DNA from: Candidatus Daviesbacteria bacterium
GTDB taxonomy: Bacteria > Patescibacteriota > Microgenomatia > Daviesbacterales > UBA10151
Length of the DNA: 64,000 nucleotides
NCBI GenBank assembly: GCA_028715175.1
Contig: JAQUSJ010000001.1
Span: 472,368-536,367 of the forward strand
Reading direction: 5' to 3'
The notes beneath the pieces were generated by a model, which made no database searches, had not been told where the DNA came from, and worked only from the letters and a program-made list of their open reading frames with translations. Positions within the stretch are counted from its first letter, which is position 1. The number at the start of each line of letters is the position of its first letter. Made by a program: the position numbers and the translations under genes. Shown here piece after piece: positions 31,241 to 49,328 of the stretch.

Positions 31241-31268
31241 TTGACATTTATCAGTTATAGGGTAAAAT
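31241..31268 (+). promoter_or_regulatory. sigma70-like promoter TTGACA-N16-TAAAAT
   Basis: ttgaca 31241-31246; taaaat 31263-31268; followed by a weak hairpin plus T5 (31279-31303) and RBS aaggaggtg. Confidence 0.45.
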
Positions 31269-31324
31269 ATAGTTAGTACCATGACTCAAAGGTCGTGGTT
31301 TTTGTTAAAAAAGGAGGTGAAAAT

Positions 31325-31564
31325 ATGCCAGAAAGAATGAGAGAAGTATTAGAAATGGTTATTGGGAGAGCAGGTATGAGAATGAGGAGGAGTGGATATC
31401 CATACGGTGGGATTACTCGTAGTAATGATGTTGTTTACGGCTTATCGTTCAAAAAAGGGGGAAAACCTAGGGAGGATCCGCGTAACGGACCTGTGATTAT
31501 TTTAAGAGCTGCTGGTAAGCAAGATCATCCTCCTTTAGAAAAAAACCAAGACAATTCAAAATAG
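31325..31564 (+). CDS. hypothetical small protein (79 aa)
   Basis: Start moved to ATG 31325 (MPERMREV...), 6 nt after the strong RBS aaggaggtg; ORF track start 31295 lacks an RBS. Confidence 0.4.
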   Translation: MPERMREVLEMVIGRAGMRMRRSGYPYGGITRSNDVVYGLSFKKGGKPREDPRNGPVIILRAAGKQDHPPLEKNQDNSK

Positions 31565-41343: not shown

Positions 41344-42717
41344 ATGAATCTTAGATCCGTGAGGCTTTTTCTTTTGATTACCCGGGAATACCTGAAAAGA
41401 AATGCAATCCGGGTTATAGGCGGCATAGTTTTGATCATGCTTCTGGTGATTTTTCAGACCAGGCTAAAGCTTTTCTATTCACCGGACATTATCAGGGTAG
41501 GTTTAATCGGGACTTATCAGGAACATGATCTGCCTATTGAGGTAACAAGACTGTTATCTTCCGGCTTGATTGAAGCAAGCAGCGACGGAAAAATTAAACC
41601 AAACCTGGTAAGCGGCTGGGAAACCAATAATGATGCCACAAGTTTTAAGTTTAAATTGAAGGATTTAAAATGGGTTGATAAAGAAACTGTAAAAGCATCC
41701 GATCTGGAATTTTCTATCCCAAATACAAACGTTTCCTTTCCGGATGATAAAATAATTCAATTCGACCTGAAGGAATCATATTCTCCTTTGCCCTCGCTTC
41801 TAACGAAACCTATTTTTAAAAAAGGTACTCTGATTGGGACAGGTCCGTATAAGATAAAAAAGATTGAAAAAAGCAGGATTTTTATTACGAAACTTATTCT
41901 GGAACCGCAGGATGGTAAATCTCCAGGTATAGTTGTAAGATTTTACCCGAACGAGAAGATAGCCGTTACAGGTTTTAATTTGGGAGAGGTACAGGTTTTA
42001 ATGGGTTTAAGCAATCCAAAGCTGGTTGGTTCAAGTCCCTTAATCGGTGCAGTGCAAACTATTGATTACTCAAAAATTGTCACAATTTTATTCCAGACAA
42101 CGGATTCGCTTTTGCATAACCGTTCACTCCGTCAGTCATTAGCTTTCCAGACTCCTAAAATAGAAAATGAAGAAGTTGCTAATAATCCTTATCCTCCGCA
42201 ATCCTGGGCCCGCGACAGCGATTCCAAAAAATATCTGTCTAATCCTGAGGAAGCAGCAGCAGCTCTGGAGCGGGCAAAGTCGACTCTACCGGATGATCAG
42301 CTGCGTTCGGGGTTAATTCTAACAGCGACTCCGAATTTGGAGGAGGTGGGAAAAGTTGTTGTAGAATCCTGGAAAAAGTTGGGATTTGACAGTAAGCTCC
42401 GGATAGAATCAGGTATCCCTCAAAATTTTCAAGCGCTTTTAATCACCCAAAGCATACCGGTTGATCCTGACCAGTATTTTCTGTGGCACGCAACTCAAGC
42501 AAAAACCAATTTAACAAGATACGATTCCAAAAGAGTAGATAAGGATTTAGAGGACGGAAGGAAGATAATTTCAGAGGAAGATAGAAAGGTAAAATATTTT
42601 GATTTTCAAAAAACCCTGCTGGAAGATGCTCCTGCAGTATTTTTATATTTCCCGAAACATAATGTTATTTACCTTAAAAAGTTGGAGCCGTTTTTGAATA
42701 AAATATTAATTCCTTAA
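41344..42717 (+). CDS. family-5 solute-binding protein-like (peptide/nickel ABC substrate-binding fold), membrane-anchored
   Basis: N-terminal TM; loose SBP_bac_5 similarity (IGTGPYKIKKIE..., LRSGLILTATPN...). Confidence 0.4.
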   Translation: MNLRSVRLFLLITREYLKRNAIRVIGGIVLIMLLVIFQTRLKLFYSPDIIRVGLIGTYQEHDLPIEVTRLLSSGLIEASSDGKIKPNLVSGWETNNDATSFKFKLKDLKWVDKETVKASDLEFSIPNTNVSFPDDKIIQFDLKESYSPLPSLLTKPIFKKGTLIGTGPYKIKKIEKSRIFITKLILEPQDGKSPGIVVRFYPNEKIAVTGFNLGEVQVLMGLSNPKLVGSSPLIGAVQTIDYSKIVTILFQTTDSLLHNRSLRQSLAFQTPKIENEEVANNPYPPQSWARDSDSKKYLSNPEEAAAALERAKSTLPDDQLRSGLILTATPNLEEVGKVVVESWKKLGFDSKLRIESGIPQNFQALLITQSIPVDPDQYFLWHATQAKTNLTRYDSKRVDKDLEDGRKIISEEDRKVKYFDFQKTLLEDAPAVFLYFPKHNVIYLKKLEPFLNKILIP

Positions 42718-43083
42718 TTTAGGAAGATGGTTGCCGGTAGACTTTAAAATGCTGCCTCTTTTTAAGGCATTAAGCTCGTGTTGCATTGCTTTTATCTGAT
42801 GTCCGGTATAAATTAAGCCGTTGTAGGTTTTTTCTTCACCTTCCTGGAGTTCTTCTATATGTTTTTTTACCTCATCCAGACCTTTGGTGTTTTTGTTAAC
42901 AGATATCTGAATCAGGGTTGTAAGGTAAAGTACCTCCAAAAATACTGCCATAACTAAAATAAACTGAATTAAACCCGTTGTCAGCCCAAGCAGTCCGAGA
43001 ACAAAAATTCCACCAAAAAGCAGGAGATTTATTATTAAAGGCAGAAAAATTTTTTTAGATGAAAATAATTCTTTCAAAATCAT
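42706..43083 (-). CDS. small membrane protein (two TM segments + coiled-coil tail), uncharacterised
   Basis: 125-aa ORF, hydrophobic N-terminal half. Confidence 0.35.
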   Translation of the reverse strand: MILKELFSSKKIFLPLIINLLLFGGIFVLGLLGLTTGLIQFILVMAVFLEVLYLTTLIQISVNKNTKGLDEVKKHIEELQEGEEKTYNGLIYTGHQIKAMQHELNALKRGSILKSTGNHLPKLRN

Positions 43084-43196
43084 GCTTCCCCCTAAATCAC
43101 TAAAAAAATCTCTTAACCTGCTCTTTTAACGGTTTTAGAGATTTCTAAATTAATTGTCTACCTGTTGGTTTAATATGTCAACACCCCAAATTAGCT

Positions 43197-44288
43197 TTAA
43201 AACCAACCTCTTTTTTTAAAATAAAGGCTCATTAAAAGAGCAGGAATTGTACCCGTGATCAGGATAATTATAAATGTGGTGTATTTTCCTAAAAAGGTCC
43301 AGGATCCGGCTTCTATTCCTCCCGGGAGTAAAACATTCATCCCAAAAAATGTTCCGATAACTGTAGCCGGAAGGGTGAAGGTAAAAAGAATAGTCAAAAC
43401 AGCCAAAGTTTTGTTGGTTTTTTCTGAACTGATAGTAAAATCCGCATCTTTATAAATATCAACCGTTTCCCGCGCTTCTTCTAAAGTTTCCCAGGCTTTG
43501 TCAATCGAATCGGCAATATTCTCAAAATAAATGGATAAATTAGTTGAACTGAATTTGTTTATTTTAGTGGTCATCTCTGCCATTAATGATTTTAAAGGTC
43601 TGATTACCCGCCTTGAGGAAAGTATCTTGTGTCTTAATTGACCGATTTTATAAACTCCGGATACCTTATCGTCAAACACAATATCCTCTGTTTCATCTAC
43701 CTCTTTTAAGATTATTTGCAATAGTTGAGTTAAGTCATCGGTTAGCTGGTTAATAATGGTGTACAACAAGTTGGCAGAAGAATTATCAATGTACACCTTT
43801 CGTTGTTCTTTGCTTTCTTTACACTCATTAAATATCCTGGAAACCGTATCTTTAGAGCTGTCATGGACGGTAACGAGGTAATTTTTACCTAAAAAGAAGC
43901 ATATTTGATTAATAGTGATACTTTCTTCATTGGCATTAAGCGCGGGAAAACGAAGCAGTAAAAATAAATATTTATCCTCTGAATTTTGCTCAATTTTAGG
44001 GAAATGTCCTTTAGACATACAATCTTCAAGGTGTAAAGGATGGAAAGGATATTTTTGGACCAGTTCGCTAATTTCCTTTCGGCTGGGATTTCTGACATCT
44101 ACCCAAAGGATCTTGCCGTTGCGGATTGATTGTATTTTATCATTTTTTTGGTCTGAATCTATTTCTTGCTTTCCATCTTCTTTGATATTGAGGAAGCTTA
44201 AATAGTATTTAAGAGCCCCGACCAGTTTTCTAGGTTTACCCAGTAAAATTTGTATATCTTTTAGTGTTCCGGTTAAAGTTTTGGTCAT
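43197..44288 (-). CDS. corA: magnesium/cobalt transporter CorA
   Basis: 363 aa; C-terminal two TM segments with the GMN motif (FFGMNVLLPGG). Confidence 0.9.
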   Translation of the reverse strand: MTKTLTGTLKDIQILLGKPRKLVGALKYYLSFLNIKEDGKQEIDSDQKNDKIQSIRNGKILWVDVRNPSRKEISELVQKYPFHPLHLEDCMSKGHFPKIEQNSEDKYLFLLLRFPALNANEESITINQICFFLGKNYLVTVHDSSKDTVSRIFNECKESKEQRKVYIDNSSANLLYTIINQLTDDLTQLLQIILKEVDETEDIVFDDKVSGVYKIGQLRHKILSSRRVIRPLKSLMAEMTTKINKFSSTNLSIYFENIADSIDKAWETLEEARETVDIYKDADFTISSEKTNKTLAVLTILFTFTLPATVIGTFFGMNVLLPGGIEAGSWTFLGKYTTFIIILITGTIPALLMSLYFKKRGWF

Positions 44289-44303
44289 AATTTTTCCCCT
44301 TTT

Positions 44304-44343
44304 AAAAAAGCGTAGGAAGAAAAGATACTTGCTTCTTCTACGC
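44304..44343 (-). terminator. intrinsic terminator/attenuator in the corA 5' leader (12-bp stem, then U6, then RBS and ATG)
   Basis: Minus strand reads gcgtagaagaagcaagtatcttttcttcctacgc + tttttt + aaaagggg + N9 + ATG. Confidence 0.6.
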
Positions 44344-44517
44344 TCAACAAGTTAAGTTTAGTCCCCTGCTTTGAGGCTTGTCAAGACTGCAAATTGGCTT
44401 CATTAAACTTAGGTTTCTCCAATAGTACAAGAAGTTCTAGCACCTGTTAACTAGAGTAACTCTTGCTCAATTTTAGGGAGTTGTGAATCATGTAGTTTTT
44501 GAATTACAGGATATCTT

Positions 44518-44988
44518 TTGATATTATTATCTGCTATGGCAGGCAAAGAAGCTCCTTGGTTAATAGACCTAAGAAAAACTCTTAAGACAATGAGGGATAC
44601 AAATGCCGATTACTTGGTAGCTGATGATGGTTACAATAAGACTGTTATCAGACGGCGTAGCCATACCTCTGTTCCTAAAGGATTTTCTCCAGAAGAAGAC
44701 CTTCCCAATTATGAAAATGAGACAAGATATTCACAAATAAAGGCTCCTTTTACTGGTGTTTTATACCGAAGACCTGAACCAGAAAAACCATATTATGTAA
44801 ATGAAGGTGATTTCGTTGAAGAGGGCCAAATTGTGGCTATGATCGAAGCCATGAAACTTGTTAATGTAATCGAGGCAACAAGGTCGGGACAAGTAATTAA
44901 AATTTTTTGCCAAGATGGAACAACCGTCAATAAAGACGATATCTTAATGGTTTTAAACCTTACCAAAATTCCAATGCAAAACCACTAG
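44518..44988 (+). CDS. biotinyl/lipoyl-domain protein (BCCP-like), orphan
   Basis: C-terminal EGQIVAMIEAMKLVNVIEA resembles the biotinyl domain with an AMK motif. Confidence 0.55.
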   Translation: MILLSAMAGKEAPWLIDLRKTLKTMRDTNADYLVADDGYNKTVIRRRSHTSVPKGFSPEEDLPNYENETRYSQIKAPFTGVLYRRPEPEKPYYVNEGDFVEEGQIVAMIEAMKLVNVIEATRSGQVIKIFCQDGTTVNKDDILMVLNLTKIPMQNH

Positions 44989-47461: not shown

Positions 47462-47504
47462 GTTATAGTTTTTGTGGTATAATAAGCATACTGCTGAAAT
47501 GGAA

Positions 47505-47526
47505 CCCCGCCATGGCGGGGTTTTTT
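47505..47526 (+). terminator. rho-independent terminator (ccccgc-catg-gcgggg + T6)
   Basis: GC stem then tttttt; 44 nt after the upstream stop. Confidence 0.7.
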
Positions 47527-47540
47527 AATGGCAGATCATT

Positions 47541-49328
47541 ATGACAAACATACGAAATGTAGCTATCATTGCCCATGTTGATCATGGCAAAACTACCTTA
47601 GTGGATGCTTTACTTCGTCAATCCAAAACTAAGCTTGGAAAGCAATTTACAGACACTTCAGAGCTAATTATGGATTCCAATGACCTGGAAAAAGAGCGGG
47701 GGATTACCATTTTTTCCAAAAATGCCTCAGTGAACTGGAAAAATACCAAAATCAATATTATTGATACTCCGGGGCATGCTGATTTTGGCGGGGAAGTGGA
47801 ACGGGTTTTAAAAATGGCTGACGGAGTTTTACTTTTAATTGATGCCAAAGAGGGACCAATGCCGCAAACCAGGTTTGTTTTGAAAAAAGCACTGGAGTTG
47901 GGCCACAAAATAATTGTGGTTATTAACAAAATAGACAAACCTGATGCCAGAATAGAATATGTTATTAATAAAACTTTTGATCTCTTTTTAGAATTGGGGG
48001 CTGATGAAGAAACTGCGTATTTTCCCACCATTTATTCCTCAGGTAAGCACGGCAAAGCCGGACTTAAAACAAATCTTTCCAAAATGGATGATATTTCACC
48101 TGTTTTTGATGCCATATTAGAGCATATTCCGGCACCTCATGATGATATAAGCAAACCTTTGCAAATTTTAATTACCAATACTATTTATGACAATTTCAAA
48201 GGCAGGATTGCTACAGGCAGGGTTTACAATGGTACCATTAAAGCCGGTCAGGAAGCAGCCTACATAAACAGGGATGGGGTTATCAAAAAATTCAGGCTGA
48301 CTTCTTTAATGGGTTTTGAAGGGTTAGACAGAGTTGATATTAAAGAGGCTCATGCCGGTGATATTGTGGCTCTTTCCGGTATTCCTGATATTACTATTGG
48401 TGAAACCATTGCAGATTCCAGCAGTCCCGTTGCTTTACCTGTTTTGGATATTGAAGAGTCTACTGTCAGAATGAATTTTGGGGTCAATACTTCTCCTTTT
48501 GCCGGACTGGAGGGTGAATTTAAAACTGCCAGACAAATCCGGGAAAGGCTTTTCAAAGCAGCAGAGGCAGATGTAGCTTTAACGGTTGAAGATGGTTCTT
48601 CCGGTGACTTGATTGTTAACGGCAGGGGAGAACTGCATCTGGCTATTTTAATTGAGCGGTTGCGAAGGGAAGGCTATGAATTTCAGGTCGGCAAGCCTCA
48701 GGTTATTGAGAAAACAATAAACGGAAAACTCATGACCCCATATGAAAAAGTAGCTATCGAGGTTCCGGAAGCTATGTCAGGGACAGTTATGCAAAAAATG
48801 GGTCTTAGACATGCCGAGTTATTAGATATGAATACCGAGAACGGTATTGTATACCTGCTGTTTTGTATTGCCACCAAGGAGTTTTTTGGCTATAGAAGTC
48901 AGTTCATGACCGATACAAAGGGTTTGGGAATAATCAGCAGTTCATTTTTGGAATACAGGGAGGATAAAGGAGGAAAGTTTGAAAGAATGCAGGGGTCTTT
49001 GGTAGTACATGAATCGGGAACTACCAAGCTATATGCCCTGGTAGGTGCTCAAGATAGAGGAATTCTGTTTGTAGGGCCCGGTATCAGTGTTTATAAAGGG
49101 CAGGTTATTGGTATGAATTCCAGAGGGGATGATATTAAAATAAATGTTTGTAAGGAAAAACAGCAAACAAATCACAGATCCAGCGGGGAAGGAACCAGCG
49201 AGCATTTTAATACTCCGAAAATCATGAGTTTGGAGCAGGCTATCGAATATATTGATGAGACGGAACTGGTAGAAGTTACCCCCAAAAACATCAGAATCAG
49301 AAAAATTGACTTAAACTCTAAATTCTAA
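47541..49328 (+). CDS. typA: translational GTPase TypA/BipA
   Basis: 595 aa; G1 AHVDHGKTT, G3 DTPGHADF, G4 NKID; EF-G-like domains III-V. Confidence 0.95.
   Translation: MTNIRNVAIIAHVDHGKTTLVDALLRQSKTKLGKQFTDTSELIMDSNDLEKERGITIFSKNASVNWKNTKINIIDTPGHADFGGEVERVLKMADGVLLLIDAKEGPMPQTRFVLKKALELGHKIIVVINKIDKPDARIEYVINKTFDLFLELGADEETAYFPTIYSSGKHGKAGLKTNLSKMDDISPVFDAILEHIPAPHDDISKPLQILITNTIYDNFKGRIATGRVYNGTIKAGQEAAYINRDGVIKKFRLTSLMGFEGLDRVDIKEAHAGDIVALSGIPDITIGETIADSSSPVALPVLDIEESTVRMNFGVNTSPFAGLEGEFKTARQIRERLFKAAEADVALTVEDGSSGDLIVNGRGELHLAILIERLRREGYEFQVGKPQVIEKTINGKLMTPYEKVAIEVPEAMSGTVMQKMGLRHAELLDMNTENGIVYLLFCIATKEFFGYRSQFMTDTKGLGIISSSFLEYREDKGGKFERMQGSLVVHESGTTKLYALVGAQDRGILFVGPGISVYKGQVIGMNSRGDDIKINVCKEKQQTNHRSSGEGTSEHFNTPKIMSLEQAIEYIDETELVEVTPKNIRIRKIDLNSKF

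Follow-up and report, generated by a model that had tools for sequence, protein, structure and literature searches.

The M-box, a Mg2+ riboswitch found upstream of Mg2+ transporter genes, combines an aptamer of about 150–170 nt, built of three helices, with an intrinsic terminator platform placed just before the ribosome-binding site; its compaction and termination depend on Mg2+. Stem-loops at the very start of a transcript can also act in another way: the mRNAs of ompA in Escherichia coli and aprE in Bacillus subtilis are stabilized by 5'-terminal stem-loops that lie within a few nucleotides of the 5' end, are followed by an accessible Shine-Dalgarno sequence, lack a U-tract, and are not terminators. 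For corA itself, the enterobacterial leader contains the upstream ORF corL and responds to intracellular Mg2+ through Rho-dependent termination (PMC11552253), and a corA motif has been reported solely in Gammaproteobacteria (PMC6429828). At the phage PR'-tR' pair, a terminator follows right after an active promoter, expression is achieved by read-through with a Q-type antiterminator, and a short RNA is produced as a by-product (PMC7547250). More generally, transcripts that end prematurely within the 5' UTR are a widespread phenomenon among bacteria (PMC7815308, PMC10319736).

The locus described herein is the 5' region of a corA gene in a Candidatus Daviesbacteria genome, located in a window of 64,000 nt, which is the whole stretch of DNA that was analyzed. 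Its features are the following:

43197–44288, minus strand: corA, 363 aa, a GMN-type Mg2+/Co2+ channel (Pfam CorA PF01544, E 5e-53)
44296–44299, minus strand: Shine-Dalgarno GGGG in AAAAGGGGAAAAA, 7 nt 5' of the ATG and outside the hairpin
44304–44309, minus strand: U6 tract, directly 3' of the GC-rich stem base (GCG/CGC)
44310–44343, minus strand: class A hairpin, GCGUAGAAGAAG (44343–44332) paired with CUUUUCUUCCUACGC (44324–44310), with a 9-nt loop and one bulged C
44355–44364, minus strand: -10 region GGACTAAACT, with the hexamer TAAACT at 44360–44355, from the promoter scan and the alignment
44379–44384, minus strand: -35 box TTGACA of the class A promoter, a 10/12 consensus match and the best in 3.5 kb, with the block TATTGACAA invariant in nine relatives
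44389–44535, no strand: non-conserved DNA separating the corA promoter from the divergent biotinyl-domain gene, outside the element

With the M-box, this locus shares the position upstream of a Mg2+ transporter gene and a terminator-like platform just before the ribosome-binding site, but its predicted leader is only ~60 nt long and holds none of the aptamer helices. Like the enterobacterial leader, it is a cis-acting corA 5' region with putative premature transcription termination; the enterobacterial one, however, is long, with two alternative structures, a short ORF, and Rho, whereas here there are one hairpin and a U-tract, with no upstream ORF, and no sequence or Rfam match was found between the two. 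The resemblance to PR'-tR' lies in the order of promoter and terminator, with read-through and a short RNA as the expected outcome; the difference is that here the hairpin would fall within a few nucleotides of +1, and the locus is not known to have a Q-type antiterminator or another modulating factor. The closeness of the stem-loop to the predicted 5' end and the accessible Shine-Dalgarno recall ompA and aprE, but no feature here is more regular than the U-tract, above all in a second form of the element (class B, see below). The corA element would belong to the broad known class of aptamer-less 5' UTR terminators (PMC7815308, PMC10319736).

The corA ATG is at 44288–44286 and the stop codon at 43199–43197 (minus strand), and the product scores 143.5 bits with TIGR00383, below the equivalog cut-off. 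The minus strand of 44289–44345 reads GAGCGUAGAAGAAG-CAAGUAUCU-UUUCUUCCUACGC-UUUUUU-AAAAGGGGAAAAAUU-AUG, so that AAAAGGGGAAAAAUU alone stands between the U6 tract and the start codon, and the hairpin, U6, Shine-Dalgarno, and ATG, all read directly from this strand, are where the original prediction had placed them. Eleven pairs and a bulged C make up the stem, and GA/UU pairs can extend it to 44345/44308, for a total of 14 pairs. The 34-nt hairpin has a dG of -10.7 kcal/mol and the extended one of -14.1 kcal/mol (z = -3.18; 2 of 200 shuffles equally stable). The locus thus shows the anatomy of an intrinsic terminator: a GC-rich base, a stem of 11–14 bp, a dG of -10.7 to -14.1, and U6. On both strands of the 64-kb window, only five sites combine a dG of -10.7 or lower with a T-run of at least 6, and for this reason the observation is real and better than chance; the chance expectation of such a site in the 229-nt corA spacer is ~0.01. 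A consensus terminator scan missed the hairpin because it allowed loops of at most 8 nt. Sequestration of the Shine-Dalgarno by the 3' arm was considered and discarded, since it would involve at most five weak pairs and is absent from the folds, in which the Shine-Dalgarno is unpaired.

Within 3.5 kb, the sigma70-like site with the best match is TTGACA-18-TAAACT (44384–44355), also the only conserved one, which ends 11 nt before the stem and whose motif is unique within the window. In nine aligned corA upstream regions of relatives, invariance is confined to two blocks, TATTGACAA and GACTA.ACT, and the 15-nt stretch between them is free to vary in sequence, with its length kept. RNA pairing between the blocks was rejected, as neither complementarity nor covariation was seen, and they are therefore read as the -35 and -10 boxes. 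By blastn, homology to L002 (97%), L035 (88%), and L001 (80%) starts at 44388/44389, where the -35 block begins, and the sequence upstream of that point has no match in any of the three. In L009, the same class A promoter is followed by an ATG 8 nt past the -10 hexamer, a leaderless arrangement that would fix the position of the -10 box and the point where transcription starts. Given the invariant blocks, the homology boundary at the -35 box, the leaderless L009, and the near-leaderless class B loci, the class A promoter is a strong prediction.

Several corA orthologues appear to be leaderless or near-leaderless, with the ATG 8–14 nt past the -10 box and no Shine-Dalgarno: those of L009 (2990–3003), L006, L007, L013, L015, and L045. 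Within one genus-level group, corA would thus alternate between leaderless and leadered forms.

Transcription of corA is predicted to start at ~44348, ~7 nt after TAAACT, and because the conserved promoter and the homology boundary sit just upstream of the hairpin, the leader from this predicted start site would be only ~60 nt. A leader of ~230 nt closed by the hairpin, as first proposed, is not supported by these data: 44389–44535 has no counterpart in the relatives, what they share begins at 44388/9, and the conserved promoter abuts the hairpin. Only ~3–5 nt of predicted RNA precede the class A stem, too little to accommodate an aptamer or an antiterminator. No ORF is present in the predicted ~60-nt leader, and the hairpin is the only structure in its folds; no conserved complementary segment for a mutually exclusive antiterminator was found, a result that depends on the predicted start site. 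A pseudoknot or antiterminator between an upstream ACUUG and the CAAGU of the loop was dropped, the complementarity being absent in L002 and others.

Conservation of the hairpin was followed in 14 distinct lineages with the class A promoter, the window included. The nearest public record, L002, is a Candidatus Daviesbacteria metagenome-assembled genome, with a CorA 99% identical and DNA 97% identical, which assigns the window to the candidate phyla radiation (CPR, Patescibacteria). The state of the leader in each lineage is as follows:

Window, L002, L035, L001, and L005: arms unchanged and U6-7 present, loops of 9–13 nt fully diverged
L003: hairpin shortened to GCGUAG-5 nt-CUACGC, then UUUCUUU
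L066, L008, and L062: stem more or less intact, U-run degenerate, leader longer
L011 and L063: 5' arm alone kept
L064: 3' arm alone kept
L065: different hairpin
L009: leaderless

Stem and U-run (U6-U7) are thus kept together in only 5 of the 14 lineages, whose CorA proteins are 65–99% identical to that of the window and in which loops and promoter spacers have diverged; the spacing between the U-tract and the Shine-Dalgarno is also kept in these five. Counting the stem by itself, it is conserved in 5–8 of the 14, with several disruptive changes: that of L062 has a mismatch and a wobble, and the inner stem of L008 is disrupted, both of which weaken it. No compensatory changes were seen among the 14 lineages, the arms being either invariant or damaged. 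As judged from these alignments, the class A hairpin is constrained where it survives, yet dispensable and evolutionarily labile, and such lability is not how a riboswitch would be predicted to behave. The stem kept after loss of the U-run in L066, L008, and L062 suggests a role other than termination, and the partnerless 5' arm of L011 and L063 may point to a function of the sequence itself near +1.

In all the loci fetched, the class A arms occur only upstream of corA, with one occurrence in the window. Generic repeats were discarded as an explanation for either class, since each is unique in the window and found in the loci solely at corA or p125 positions, and a scan of viral contigs for the class A and class B motifs found none. 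The orientation of the upstream gene was also compared: ~6 loci with the hairpin are co-directional and 6 divergent, with 7 and 5, respectively, among those without it. The hairpin is thus present or absent regardless of which way the upstream gene points, which indicates that it acts on corA's own transcript. A terminator for the upstream gene, one of the possibilities first raised for this hairpin, is dismissed on this ground and because the gene in the window is divergent and transcribed away from it. Nor would it serve the opposite strand, as inspection of the reverse complement revealed no U-tract on the plus strand.

A second promoter-and-hairpin unit, class B, lies downstream of corA in the window, ahead of a gene here called p125:

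43153–43181, minus strand: class B promoter, TTGACA-17-GACAAT, lying past the corA stop and ahead of the next gene
43102–43146, minus strand: class B hairpin, GAAAUCUCUAAAACC-loop-GGUUAAGAGAU, then U7, in the p125 leader
42706–43083, minus strand: p125, 125 aa with two transmembrane helices, ATG at 43083, located by tblastn synteny

The hairpin at 43102–43146 is the only terminator-like site after corA. corA followed by p125 is a conserved gene pair, and class B precedes p125 in every locus that has p125, the window included. Its promoter is conserved as TTTTGGGGGGTTGACA-N17-GACAAT in ~30 loci, and at p125 the complete unit consists of this promoter and GAAAUCUCUAAAACC-loop-(GAGCA)GGUUAAGAGAU with U6-8 (for example, L013:4142–4186 and L005:4158–4203). 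In other Daviesbacteria, the corA promoter is also of a different kind, TTTTGGGGGGTTGAC-N17-AACAAT. In ten lineages, a hairpin non-homologous to class A precedes corA, GAAAUCUCUAAAACC-loop-GGU..AGAGAU with U6-7, and is followed by a Shine-Dalgarno; in approximately eight other lineages with the class B-type corA promoter, the ATG comes directly after the promoter, and in several class B loci it is 12–14 nt past the -10 box.

A covariance model (R1) scored the class B copy of the window at 57 bits (E 1e-9), its sole match there, and over the window and 35 loci (~230 kb) it found class B solely before corA and p125. Standard pairs make up 98% of the pairs counted, and 7 of 12 pairs have changed on both sides (for instance, AACC/GGUU to UACC/GGUA), the observed value being reached in 0 of 500 shuffles; these counts come from a hand-made structural alignment in which the inner helix columns were chosen as pairable, so that the inner helix is biased towards pairing, and the covariation is modest. 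The loops tolerate insertions of 35–60 nt (L016, L044), which favors an RNA hairpin over a DNA operator. Some loop and internal-loop bases are conserved beyond the needs of pairing (UAAAA; GAGCAGG or CAGAYGG), and of the ~40 class B copies listed, nearly all have a U-run of at least 5 straight after the stem, the p125 copy of L001 reading UUUUAUU. No Rfam match to class B was found. Class B is proposed as a candidate new cis-regulatory RNA, or else a dual-use terminator and leader hairpin. With its conserved loop nucleotides and its strict association with the two genes, it is a better candidate than class A for a signal-responsive terminator, and the better one to follow up. It is specific to corA and p125, and may reasonably be considered as a small new regulatory RNA.

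The p125 protein has no family in Pfam, NCBIfam, or the PDB. Among the precomputed matches of a distant homologue, P0176, is DUF1003 (PF06210), which is only a hint of a possible kinship. Its homologues (56 proteins) come almost only from Daviesbacteria. In p125, the two transmembrane helices contain a conserved LE(A/V)IY motif, and the helical tail after them contains GHQ(I/M)K..Q..LD.L(K/R)K and NGNGH. Among the loop and leader insertions are short, recurring, GC-richer segments, for example GCGAAGGTTTCAAGCTTCGC and TCGCAAGCTTCGCTTA, seen in the class B loops of L016:4150–4250 and L044:2646–2725, in the corA leaders of L043 and L040, and in the p125 leader of L051. One possibility is that these segments represent a Daviesbacteria miniature repeat or insertion element.

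The succession of a promoter, a hairpin with U-run, and a start codon was also observed at other genes of the window. A small ORF with its ATG at 31326 is preceded (31243–31326, plus strand) by TTGACA-16-TAAAAT, CCAUGACUCAAAGGUCGUGG-U5, and GGAGG, and a GTPase gene with its ATG at 47541 is preceded (47470–47543, plus strand) by gTGgTATAAT and CCCCGCCAUGGCGGGG-U6. The GTPase site is conserved in L010:6681–6702, L013:7045–7067, and L016:4870–4892, with a compensatory change of C-G to U-A at the outer pair. Among the intergenic terminator-like sites of the window and 22 loci, 11 of 30 have a promoter-like site ending 3–40 nt upstream, or 6 of 25 when the corA and p125 leaders are left aside; the expectation is roughly 2–3, given a shuffle density of about one promoter-like site per 700 nt of strand. 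The conventional order, with the promoter-like site just downstream of the terminator-like site, was seen in 6 of 30. Since canonical terminators are present at some gene ends, intrinsic termination is suggested to be in use in this organism, and, on these predictions, the order of promoter, terminator hairpin, and gene is a recurring habit of the genome. Experimental knowledge of promoters, leaders, and termination in Patescibacteria is, to our knowledge, almost nonexistent. The picture across the lineage would be that of a genome-reduced CPR bacterium in which strong sigma70-type promoters are immediately followed by terminator hairpins, and it raises the question of how expression is achieved from a promoter that leads directly into a terminator. 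The conserved modules are also ready-made promoter and terminator parts. What deserves pursuing is the class B hairpin, together with the promoter-then-terminator order across the genome.

What the sequences show is the anatomy, a promoter and a stem conserved among relatives, no match to a known RNA family, and a layout that is met again at other genes; the start site, termination, and the consequences outlined here are inferred. On the best-supported reading, to which we give about an even chance, the corA hairpin would be a leaky promoter-proximal intrinsic terminator that doubles as a 5' hairpin, and not a ligand sensor. The conserved sigma70-type promoter (-35 at 44384–44379, -10 at 44360–44355) would drive corA, and the hairpin at 44343–44310 would form almost from the first nucleotides of the RNA, with the Shine-Dalgarno and the ATG following within 20 nt. 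RNA polymerase would either stop at U6, releasing an RNA of ~45 nt, or read through into corA. Because no aptamer or competing antiterminator can form, the fraction of read-through would depend on the hairpin, which is of modest strength (a 9-nt loop and one bulge), and on general elongation conditions, and not on a dedicated ligand. Such a terminator would damp corA expression and block transcription arriving from upstream, and the read-through mRNA would keep a stem-loop beside its 5' end that probably protects it from decay.

In favor of a leaky terminator are the invariant promoter blocks at the right spacing, the better-than-chance hairpin with U6, the arms identical in five lineages, and the shortened hairpin with UUUCUUU in L003, together with the non-homologous hairpin and U6-7 at the equivalent corA position in ten other Daviesbacteria lineages and the same order at p125, the 31326 gene, and the 47541 GTPase gene. 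Against it, a terminator so near a strong promoter would seem a waste in the absence of regulation, stem and U-run are found together in just 5 of the 14 class A lineages, with no compensatory change, three lineages have the stem without the U-run, and two have a lone 5' arm. The first claim for this locus, that of a leader terminator as a riboswitch or attenuator candidate and possible M-box, holds in part: a terminator-like hairpin and U-tract does lie between promoter and ribosome-binding site and is kept in several relatives, and the riboswitch and M-box part is not supported. As a leader terminator or attenuator candidate, the element would be viable only in a weak form.

The chief rival, unlikely in our estimate though to be taken seriously, is that the stem-loop mainly guards the mRNA from 5'-end-dependent decay, with the U/A-rich stretch serving ribosome loading and termination being incidental or negligible. 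Between the predicted start and the hairpin there are ~3–5 nt in class A and 0–2 nt in class B, the stem persists without the U-run in L066, L008, and L062, and the orthologues are mostly either near-leaderless or provided with a 5' hairpin before the Shine-Dalgarno (exceptions being L011, L052, and L054), an arrangement for which the 5'-terminal stem-loops of ompA and aprE are a precedent. A stabilizer, however, would need no U-run, and yet almost every one of the ~40 listed class B copies has one of at least 5 nt, and so do five class A lineages; the other examples in the window, moreover, are textbook GC-rich terminators.

Somewhat more doubtful is a conditional attenuator without a separate aptamer, in which a signal such as Mg2+ would act on hairpin folding or the polymerase, or an RNA-binding antiterminator would intervene, to control a small corA/p125 regulon. 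Two unrelated elements of hairpin and U-run stand at the same place before orthologous corA genes, R1 confines class B to corA and p125 over ~230 kb, the bases UAAAA and GAGCAGG or CAGAYGG are conserved in class B beyond pairing, and the corA leader of E. coli mediates Mg2+ control, albeit by a different mechanism (PMC11552253). Against such control, the ~60-nt leader allows no alternative structure and the same architecture is found at unrelated genes, while class A is lost or broken in most lineages and several corA genes are near-leaderless, so that any control must be dispensable. A more specific proposal, which we hold to be less likely again, is that class A and class B are convergent "terminator-only" sensors, whose read-through would respond to Mg2+ or another ion, directly or via a CPR-specific antiterminator, with corA and p125 as the regulon and class B as a new RNA family.

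That the hairpin is a decaying remnant, for example the terminator of a former co-directional upstream gene, neutral or nearly so in this genome, is improbable. The patchwork of truncations and half-deletions among close relatives, the absence of covariation, and the co-directional gene of L005 that ends 8 nt before the promoter would fit decay. Against it, both 12-nt arms are the same in five lineages despite free divergence of the loops and promoter spacers, and these five also keep the U-tract and its spacing to the Shine-Dalgarno. A DNA operator, with the inverted repeat just past +1 binding a dimeric repressor, would account for arms conserved without covariation and for the unpaired 5' arm of L011 and L063; it is very improbable, as the distance between arms varies from 9 to 13 nt and has collapsed to a 5-nt loop in L003, the conserved U-tract would be left unexplained, and the analogous class B tolerates loop insertions of 35–60 nt.

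An M-box or other known riboswitch with a ~230-nt leader, suggested only by the Mg2+ channel gene and the terminator-like hairpin, is hardly credible and already refuted as far as sequence analysis reaches, since Rfam is empty for it both at gathering score and at E<=10, the fold of the spacer is insignificant, the conserved promoter abuts the hairpin, and 44389–44535 is missing from relatives, including one with 97% DNA identity. In detail, cmscan of the whole window at gathering scores returned four tRNAs and no other family, with the gathering score of the M-box (RF00380) not reached and no conserved structured aptamer upstream of the hairpin. At E<=10, a scan of 44200–44620 gave just two spurious eukaryotic families, E-value scans of the corA and p125 leaders found nothing beyond such spurious matches, and the 261-nt corA spacer folds no better than its shuffles (z = -0.79). 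The segment GTTAACAGGTGCT, in which a resemblance to the M-box 5' end had been seen, is indeed present (44451–44439), but in non-conserved DNA without an Rfam match. With this false M-box candidate removed, the riboswitch lead fails.

In one Daviesbacteria group, which includes the window (region 41344–44288), the corA-p125 cassette is inverted relative to the neighboring SBP_bac_5 substrate-binding-protein gene; the contrast in orientation is between L010, L013–L016, and L044 on the one hand and L001, L003, L005, L009, and L011 on the other. The change of orientation goes together with a change of corA promoter and leader, class A taking the place of class B. Between a GNAT gene and corA, at 44389–44988 (plus strand), the window contains a stand-alone biotinyl/lipoyl-domain gene (150–156 aa; Pfam Biotin_lipoyl, E 3e-19) together with its ~150-nt spacer. 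L035 has neither the biotinyl gene nor the spacer at 44389–44535, and there the GNAT gene faces the corA promoter directly; the biotinyl gene and the spacer may be a recent insertion.
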